Below are positions 676 to 1,343 of a DNA stretch of 1,647 nucleotides, one piece after another. How positions within the stretch are numbered: position 1 is the stretch's first letter; every line of letters begins with the position of its first letter. Source of the stretch: Escherichia coli (lineage in GTDB: Bacteria; Pseudomonadota; Gammaproteobacteria; Enterobacterales; Enterobacteriaceae); the NCBI RefSeq assembly GCF_003334765.1, contig NZ_QOWT01000077.1. The stretch is one strand, 5' to 3'. The notes beneath the pieces are model-generated. The model did not search any database and was not told the origin of the DNA. It saw only the letters and a list, made by a program, of their open reading frames with translations. The position numbers and the translations under genes are program-made.

Positions 676-731
676 ATAGATCTTTTACGCCGATTTGTAA
701 GTGGTTGTTTTTTTAGTGTGTTTTTTATTTA
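676..731. other. AT-rich tract, candidate DNA-unwinding element of the Rep-dependent origin
   Basis: A run dominated by A/T (TCTTTTACGCCGATTTGTAAGTGGTTGTTTTTTTAGTGTGTTTTTTATTT) between the oriT-like region and the palindromic repeats upstream of rep. The functional assignment is inference. Confidence 0.35.
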
Positions 732-781
732 CCTGTCGCATCCAGGATGAAACAACGTTGTCGCATCCTGGATGCGACAAC
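731..781. promoter_or_regulatory. Operator/iteron-like repeats: 25-bp perfect palindrome (757-781) plus degenerate upstream copy (734-755), each centred on a CCWGG site
   Basis: 757-781 GTTGTCGCATCCTGGATGCGACAAC has perfect 12-bp arms around a central T. 734-755 TGTCGCATCCAGGATGAAACAA repeats the left arm and core 25 bp upstream. Half-site TGTCGCATCC occurs at 734-743 and 759-768, and inverted at 771-780. It sits immediately upstream of the candidate rep promoter. Confidence 0.5.
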
Positions 782-794
782 ACGCAACAAGGTG

Positions 795-824
795 TTGCAC
801 AGATGTGTCATGATGGCTTAGATT
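795..824 (+). promoter_or_regulatory. Candidate sigma70 promoter for rep (-35 TTGCAC 795-800, 18-bp spacer, -10 TAGATT 819-824)
   Basis: Hexamers read directly from the sequence. The position between the palindromic operator-like repeats and the rep RBS fits an autoregulated rep promoter. Not experimentally anchored; alternative weak hexamers exist in the AT-rich tract. Confidence 0.35.
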
Positions 825-866: not shown

Positions 867-1343
867 ATGTTTATTGATTCAGAAAAACGACTGAAACAAC
901 TTTCAGATGAGGCAAAGAAAAACACCGAGGATCTCGAAGAAGCAAAGAAAAATTCAAGGTTTACACAGGTATCCCCAAAAGGTTGGGAACGTGTTCGAGA
1001 GCTGCTGAAGGATAGCCAAGGCATATCAGCACTGAAGCTGTACTCATTTTTAGCGGAGCATATCGATCCTACGTGTGGCGCTGTCGTTGCGGATCAGCAA
1101 TTCCTAGCTGAAAAACTTGGAGTTAGCAGAAGCACAATTATTCGGTGGCTCAATTACTTAGAATCAAAAAATGCATTAGTTAGAATCCCCGTTGCTGGTA
1201 AGGTTTGTGCGTATGCCCTCGATCCACATGAAGTCTGGAAGGGATACAACACTACGAAAAACCATGCAGCGTTTGTCACTAAAACACTGGTCAACAAAGA
1301 CGGTGATATTCAGCGCCGAATCATGGCCATGTTTTCAAATTGA
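867..1343 (+). CDS. Putative plasmid replication initiation protein (small winged-helix/HTH Rep), 158 aa
   Basis: ATG at 867 with a Shine-Dalgarno AGAGGG at 853-858 (8-nt spacer) and TGA stop at 1341-1343. It is the only long ORF without Arg/Pro/Trp-rich low-complexity composition. The C-terminal half has an HTH-like segment (QQFLAEKLGVSRSTIIRWLNYLESKNALVRIP) typical of winged-helix DNA-binding domains of plasmid initiators. It lies just downstream of an AT-rich tract and palindromic repeats. No HUH or catalytic-Tyr motifs, so not a rolling-circle Rep. The Rep assignment rests on context and motif, not on a homology search. Confidence 0.8.
   Translation: MFIDSEKRLKQLSDEAKKNTEDLEEAKKNSRFTQVSPKGWERVRELLKDSQGISALKLYSFLAEHIDPTCGAVVADQQFLAEKLGVSRSTIIRWLNYLESKNALVRIPVAGKVCAYALDPHEVWKGYNTTKNHAAFVTKTLVNKDGDIQRRIMAMFSN

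Follow-up and report, generated by a model that had tools for sequence, protein, structure and literature searches.

The repeats at 734-798 of the DNA analysed here most probably constitute the RepA-binding core of the replication-control region of plasmid pKL1, comprising oriV and the repA operator; we put the probability of this reading at about 80%. The DNA (hereafter ‘the window’) is a stretch of 1,647 nucleotides from Escherichia coli (contig NZ_QOWT01000077.1). The reading rests on observations made here, namely the identity of the plasmid as pKL1, the anatomy of the repeats, the selection acting on their arms, and a layout shared within the RepA family. That the region contains Rep binding sites and serves autoregulation rests on two published sources (PMC3832669; PMC12361487). 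From all of these we infer which unit would serve initiation and which repression, the stoichiometry of RepA dimers per dyad, and the position of the promoter.

The element is already known, being the replication-control region of a characterised and experimentally studied plasmid. The comparative results refine the known picture of pKL1 without changing it: they add the invariance of the arms, a second dyad, and the two-unit layout. They could help in deciding which mutants to make, or in designing compatible mini-vectors based on sister lineages. Plasmids of the pKL1 type are among the smallest autonomous replicons (~1.55 kb, one gene) and are very common.

Identity and anatomy of the plasmid

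Positions 1-77 and 1571-1647 of the window are exactly identical, and this 77-bp overlap identifies the window as a wrapped complete circle of 1570 bp. The circle is plasmid pKL1 (NC_002145.1, Col(MG828) replicon) with an additional 21-bp duplication. The NC_002145.1 record is described as ‘Escherichia coli plasmid pKL1’, is 1549 bp long, has a single annotated CDS, and is typed by MOB-suite as Col(MG828). Whole-plasmid nucleotide identity to pKL1 is 98.5% across 100% of the length. The pairwise alignment differs by the tandem duplication (538-558/559-579) and three single-base differences, all of them outside 731-824; positions 627-1386 are identical to pKL1, with 731-824 corresponding to pKL1 777-870. 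The duplication (538-579) consists of two exact copies of GCGAGGCTTGCATAGGAGTAA and lies just upstream of a ColE1-type oriT/nic sequence. The length is 1570 rather than 1549 bp because reference pKL1 has one copy of this 21-bp unit, and the best PLSDB matches to the window are two 1570-bp records.

A megablast search of PLSDB yields 335 plasmids with at least 80% window coverage, which are mostly 1549-1553 bp long and come mostly from E. coli, Klebsiella, and Shigella. Of 5426 complete E. coli genomes, 332 have a match to the pKL1-type replicon, which is also found in plasmid records of Klebsiella, Shigella, and Salmonella.

The only convincing open reading frame in the window, and the only gene on the plasmid, is repA (867-1343, plus strand), which encodes a protein of 158 aa with a single winged helix-turn-helix. 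The plasmid carries the ColE1-type oriT and is typed as mobilizable. An Rfam search of the window returned sub-threshold chance matches only. Several structures lie to the left of the rep region. A 29-nt inverted repeat (365-393/609-637, 93% complementary, 215 nt apart) has both the 21-bp repeat and the oriT-like sequence between its arms; a gapless inverted repeat with 19-nt arms (GTAATCGTATCGGCGTGCA/TGCGCGGTTATACGATTAC, 79% complementary) occupies 395-432; and an imperfect hairpin, AAGGGCGTTGCGT-TGC-ACGCAACACCCTT, separates the oriT-like sequence from the IHF box at 640-668. This last hairpin may be part of the oriT module and not of the rep module. The related plasmid pMUB-MIN14-7 has a hairpin at the equivalent place, with stem bases that are partly different.

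Repeats upstream of repA

Upstream of repA there is a perfect inverted repeat at 757-781, GTTGTCGCATCC-T-GGATGCGACAAC, with arms of 12 bp that are invariant in 27 variants. An earlier note on this DNA had reported a perfect 25-bp palindrome here. The repeat is present as reported, except that its central T is unpaired, which makes it an inverted repeat with a 1-nt centre rather than a strictly self-complementary 25-mer. A perfect arm of at least 12 occurred in none of 3000 first-order Markov shuffles of the plasmid (longest shuffled arm, 11). The repeat at 757-781 is probably a high-affinity RepA dimer site.

The same note had described a degenerate copy 25 bp further upstream, and this also holds: 734-756 matches 759-781 at 20 of 23 positions (87%), and in the full 25-nt register (732-756 against 757-781) a count by hand gives 20 of 25. 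The unit reads TGTCGCATCC-A-GGATGAAACA-AC, with an exact left half-site and a right half-site mismatched at two of ten positions. Its left part pairs with the right part of the perfect palindrome, since 734-749 is the exact reverse complement of 764-779, which gives a perfect inverted repeat of 16 bp. Three exact copies of the 10-nt half-site TGTCGCATCC are present (at 734 and 759 on the plus strand and at 770 on the minus strand), with a fourth, carrying two mismatches, at 745 on the minus strand; all four lie within 734-779. Elsewhere on the plasmid, further half-sites occur at chance level (17 matches with two or three mismatches, against 12.9 ± 3.6 expected).

Next to the perfect palindrome is a small 6-3-6 dyad, GCAACA-AGG-TGTTGC (784-798), built from variants of the core TGTYGC and overlapping the candidate -35 hexamer of repA. 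It is a candidate for the operator proper, and in the fold of the single strand it forms a separate hairpin. The TGTYGC core occurs five times within 65 bp, a density that none of 2000 shuffles reaches. Weak half-site matches are present at 801-810 and at 825-845 on the plus strand; the latter (TGAACCAACGTTAGTGCATGG) is a weak third copy of the left arm and its flank (15/21 against 748-768) and sits downstream of the candidate -10. By analogy with the half-site-like motifs that border the -10 region in relatives, 825-845 might just conceivably be a low-affinity site.

The motif CACGCAACA had been proposed to link the hairpin near oriT to the promoter region through its recurrence at 655-663 and 781-789. 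Both copies are present; their recurrence is at chance level, the plasmid containing seven distinct exact repeats of at least 9 nt and shuffles yielding ~6 exact 9-mer pairs. The proposed link also fares poorly in comparison, as the 781-789 copy is changed to CGTGCAACA in variants, and the equivalent hairpin of pMUB-MIN14-7 keeps GCAACAC although the Rep repeats of that plasmid are entirely different. In terms of sequence conservation, the conserved object near 781-789 is the separate small dyad 784-798 and not the 9-mer.

A terminator-like scan flags the minus strand at 783-755, where 13 pairs are followed by TGTTTCATCC, and the repeats could on that account be taken for an intrinsic terminator of leftward (minus-strand) transcription. 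We regard this as the least credible of the explanations considered: the T-run on the minus strand is poor and the plus strand has none, the minus strand has neither a known nor a predicted gene or promoter, and a terminator would leave unexplained both the tandem degenerate copy and the Rep-lineage-specific repeats of related plasmids.

Variation within the pKL1 clade

Natural variation was assessed in eight aligned PLSDB variants (87-99% identical over 670-870) and in 41 metagenome contigs scanned with an anchor outside 731-824, which together give 27 distinct sequences. One metagenome contig (L028, 3.6x coverage) was left out, as its sequence matches pKL1 up to position 702 and is unrelated after it; it is probably a chimeric assembly. 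Some contigs (L018, L026, and L030) contain the anchor two or three times, ~1.55 kb or ~5.6 kb apart; they are either multimers of the plasmid or circles that the assembly read through more than once.

Between the anchor and the ATG, 40 of 164 positions vary among the 27 variants. None of these falls in the 24 arm positions of the palindrome 757-781 (hypergeometric P=0.0007) or in the 12 arm positions of the small dyad 784-798 (P=0.03; P=1e-5 for both arm sets jointly), while the centres of the two dyads, 769 and 792, both vary. The dyad arms are under strong purifying selection, and the combination of conserved arms with a free centre fits a site bound by a symmetric protein. The degenerate unit 734-756 is variable at 737, 741, 743, 747, and 751. 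In PLSDB at large, 337 records match the 45-mer 752-796, ~96% of them exactly apart from the centre base (~220 with T769 and ~104 with A769). At 751, within GGATGAAACA, the window and reference pKL1 have A; all 46 kept metagenome copies and all eight other PLSDB variants examined have C, so the reference plasmid carries a minority allele.

The centre base of the perfect palindrome behaves peculiarly. Position 769 is T in 17 and A in 10 of the 27 distinct variants, and neither G nor C is seen there. Paired with 16 other biallelic sites, it gives all four gametes in 12 cases, which implies that the base has flipped repeatedly or has been exchanged by recombination. If strand synthesis switched templates across a perfect palindrome, the single centre base would be replaced by its complement, which is exactly a T/A flip. 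It is conceivable, if rather doubtful, that in vivo the palindrome, with Rep bound, folds into a hairpin or cruciform and is subject, at a measurable rate, to such ‘loop inversion’ by template switching, or else that a W centre is actively selected, for example because the CCWGG/Dcm status of the site may matter for RepA binding. If the suggestion is true, loop inversion at 769 would serve in nature as a read-out of secondary structure arising at a plasmid origin.

The flip bears on a reading in which the repeats are a single-stranded structure signal (a hairpin or cruciform) rather than a protein-binding site in duplex DNA; examples would be an extruded origin cruciform, or a priming or ssi signal from which the complementary strand is made once the plasmid has been mobilised. 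Recurrent T/A change at the centre is the expected product of hairpin-templated strand switching, the plasmid is mobilizable through its ColE1-type oriT, and the single strand of 725-800 folds strongly (-25.6 kcal/mol, z = -7.8) with a 16-bp stem formed by 734-749 and 764-779. Against this reading, every arm position is invariant, and an element conserved for structure only would tolerate compensatory changes. Further evidence against it comes from the relatives considered below.

Methylation offers another explanation for the centres. The earlier note had placed Dcm sites at both of them, which is correct (CCAGG at 742-746 and CCTGG at 767-771), and had suggested that Dcm methylation might modulate binding. 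A Dcm-sensitive switch acting on RepA would suit these two central CCWGG sites and the restriction of 769 to A or T in the 27 variants. The suggestion finds no support in comparison, however: the upstream CCWGG is changed to CTAGG in three of the 27 variants and to CCTAGG in p3-S1-SRL, and the dyad centres listed for related replicons include no CCWGG. Nor are such sites enriched, with five CCWGG on the plasmid against ~3 estimated for random sequence. In the perfect palindrome CCWGG persists because the invariant arms supply the flanking bases (...CC / GG...) and the centre is always W. We consider a Dcm switch extremely improbable.

Flanking origin elements and the candidate promoter

The proposed RepA-binding core at 734-798 sits between an IHF site and A+T-rich tract on one side (698-733) and the candidate repA promoter on the other. 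The IHF-box-like site (698-710, minus strand; AAACAACCACTTA) has one mismatch to WATCAANNNNTTR. It is followed, directly 5′ of the repeats, by a tract with T-runs (711-733) that is 78% A+T, as compared with 49% for the whole plasmid. This tract is a candidate DNA-unwinding region, and relatives have an equivalent A+T-rich stretch at its position.

The candidate promoter (795-824, plus strand), read from the sequence, consists of TTGCAC, an 18-nt spacer, and TAGATT, and is weak (7/12). A -35 hexamer at 795-800 had been put forward in the earlier note. TTGCAC is indeed located there, but it matches TTGACA at only three of six positions, and a consensus promoter scan of the window found no site. 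The hexamers are nearly invariant among the natural variants, while spacer positions 799-807 vary. At the aligned position, pMUB-MIN14-7 and pSYM4 have TTTACG/TTTACT, a 17-nt spacer, and TATATT/TATTTT. A possible DnaA box at 793-801 (TGTTGCACA), with one mismatch, was rejected: its CACA end is mutated in natural variants, and relatives have no DnaA box at the equivalent position.

Given this arrangement, the repeats might act as an operator only, repressing repA while the origin and the sites for initiation by RepA lie elsewhere on the plasmid. The repeats are located directly 5′ of the candidate promoter, whose -35 hexamer lies partly within the dyad 784-798, and the predicted RepA fold resembles those of dimeric repressors. 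The perfect palindrome, though, lies outside the core promoter; with its end 14 bp short of the candidate -35, it is by itself poorly placed for steric repression. In addition, the repeats abut the family-conserved IHF consensus and the 78% A+T tract in an origin-like layout, and there is no other cluster of half-sites on the plasmid. PMC3832669, moreover, places oriV, Rep sites, and this inverted repeat upstream of rep. We consider an operator-only role unlikely and favour a combined origin and operator.

The RepA protein

RepA is 100% identical to WP_000469298.1 and to the RepA of the 1549-bp plasmids. In Pfam it matches HTH_36 (E=3.5e-8) and generic HTH families and does not match Rep_3; a match to RepL (PF05732; E=0.0043, 17 bits, residues 52-131) is borderline, and Shigella relatives with ~44% identity to RepA are annotated as RepL in RefSeq. 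NCBIfam and PDB sequence searches with RepA returned nothing specific.

An AlphaFold model of RepA from a seven-sequence alignment (mean pLDDT 67, block means of 73-91 over residues 41-120) predicts, with moderate confidence, a long N-terminal helix, one winged helix, and a C-terminal helix, with a putative recognition helix at 88-100 and a wing at 105-117. Among the Foldseek matches listed against the PDB, the nearest folds are dimeric winged-helix repressors of the CodY, ArsR/SmtB, MarR, and TubR types. None of the 50 matches listed has E ≤ 0.001, and RepE, pi, and pPS10 RepA are not among them.

RepA-like sequences also turn up in other settings. A 1488-bp PLSDB record attributed to Corynebacterium renale (NC_004833.1) matches RepA residues 53-158 at 100% identity; this host is unexpected, and mis-attribution or contamination could account for it. 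Residues 44-157 are matched at ~73% on E. coli plasmids of 70-105 kb, where the product is annotated as ‘HTH domain-containing protein’, and residues 97-157 at 80% on Proteus and Vibrio plasmids of 171-320 kb, where it is unannotated. These fragments on large plasmids may be what is left of pKL1-like replicons that once formed cointegrates.

The RepA family

A tblastn search with RepA identified relatives at 78, 73, 69, 66, and ~44% identity on other tiny plasmids, of which eight were compared. (pHW66 and pUB6060, also considered as pKL1-like plasmids, proved to be ColE2-like.) In pKL1 and five relatives, representing six RepA lineages, two tandem dyad-symmetric units with a period of 25 or 26 bp are found ~75-135 bp upstream of the rep start and downstream of the IHF consensus; the relatives that share this layout have RepA proteins 65-81% identical. 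In Paer_p5 and two Shigella plasmids, dyads are present and no 25-26 bp tandem repeat was scored. The exact IHF consensus AATCAATAACTTA occurs at -159..-147 in four of the eight related replicons and at -197..-185 in a fifth.

The layout is shared, yet the sequences of the repeats are wholly different between lineages: TGTCGCATCC in pKL1, TAGCTCAC...GTGAGCTA in pMUB-MIN14-7 and pSYM4, GGACAC...GTGTCC in the Serratia/Klebsiella group, and TTGAGACA in the P. aeruginosa plasmid. Replicons with a common variant of the recognition helix (residues ~88-100) have a common half-site, as is seen for pMUB-MIN14-7 with pSYM4 and for the Serratia/Klebsiella trio. However, the RepA proteins of pKL1 and pMUB-MIN14-7 are only one recognition-helix residue apart and their repeats are nevertheless unrelated, so either other residues are involved in specificity or the co-variation argument may be weaker than it appears. 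Half-site-like motifs flank the -10 region in several relatives as well.

The dyads of the relatives are short or imperfect (8-13 nt) and their sequence tracks the Rep lineage; non-mobilizable relatives, which lack the oriT module, retain the same repeat layout. Both observations count against the repeats being primarily a single-stranded signal, which we regard as very unlikely. With a fold this strong, a secondary role of single-stranded structure is possible alongside the preferred one, that of duplex sites for RepA.

Published control of pKL1 and a proposed mechanism

Control at oriV and repA of pKL1 was the subject of two studies, by Burian, Stuchlik and Kay (1999, J Mol Biol 294:49) and by Burian et al. 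(2003, Biochemistry 42:10282). These authors reportedly proposed oligomerisation of RepA as the basis of copy-number control, and RepA is reported to form hexamers.

According to PMC3832669, oriV of pKL1 is located upstream of rep and comprises several Rep binding sites, a perfect inverted repeat of 16 bp, and an IHF box. In the window, this inverted repeat is 734-749/764-779. PMC12361487 cites Burian 1999 for autoregulation by Rep and for the non-productive binding of excess Rep to origin elements, and describes control of pKL1 as Rep-only, through oligomerisation. The proposal in the earlier note that these repeats are a Rep autoregulation operator and/or origin binding sites is supported by PMC3832669 and PMC12361487, and the conservation and co-variation described above point the same way.

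Taken together with the repeat anatomy, these descriptions suggest the following mechanism. RepA dimers would bind units with dyad symmetry, composed of the half-site TGTCGCATCC (core TGTYGC); there would be two such units with a 25-bp period, a perfect, high-affinity unit at 757-781 and a degenerate one at 734-756. Occupancy of these units, beside the A+T-rich tract bent by IHF, would nucleate the initiation of replication. At higher RepA concentrations, oligomerisation might spread occupancy to weaker core motifs, namely to 784-798 over the -35 and possibly to 801-810 and 825-845 as well. Such spreading would shut off transcription of repA and make further binding non-productive. The outcome would be control of copy number without the usual iterons and without an antisense RNA.

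Comparison with known systems

In pSC101 (RepA), F (RepE), R6K (pi), and pPS10 (RepA), a single plasmid-encoded initiator has two functions, setting off replication and repressing its own promoter by way of inverted-repeat sites, and iteron origins carry their Rep sites a short way upstream of rep, beside an A+T-rich tract and an IHF site. The pKL1 region shares with these replicons an initiator that would have both functions, and an IHF-like site and an A+T-rich tract that adjoin the putative Rep sites. It differs from them in several respects. Iteron theta replicons of the Rep_3 class have at least three direct iterons of ~17-22 bp, in contrast to the two dyad-symmetric units of pKL1 with their 25-bp period, beyond which no further copies were found on the plasmid. 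Their Rep_3 proteins have two winged-helix domains, whereas pKL1 RepA, of 158 aa, has a single winged helix and matches HTH_36. They have a DnaA box in the origin, whereas pKL1 has no conserved one.

Compared with the oriV/repA region of pKL1 itself, the sequence of 731-824 is identical and the layout matches the description in PMC3832669; nothing differs between the two in that stretch.

The target of pKL1 RepA is also like those of the ArsR/SmtB, MarR, and TubR repressors and of the CodY C-terminal domain, in having dyad symmetry, arms that are conserved, and a centre that is free to vary. The likeness of the proteins is one of generic fold only (E of at least 1e-3, 12-26% identity). Unlike these repressors, pKL1 RepA is also a replication initiator.
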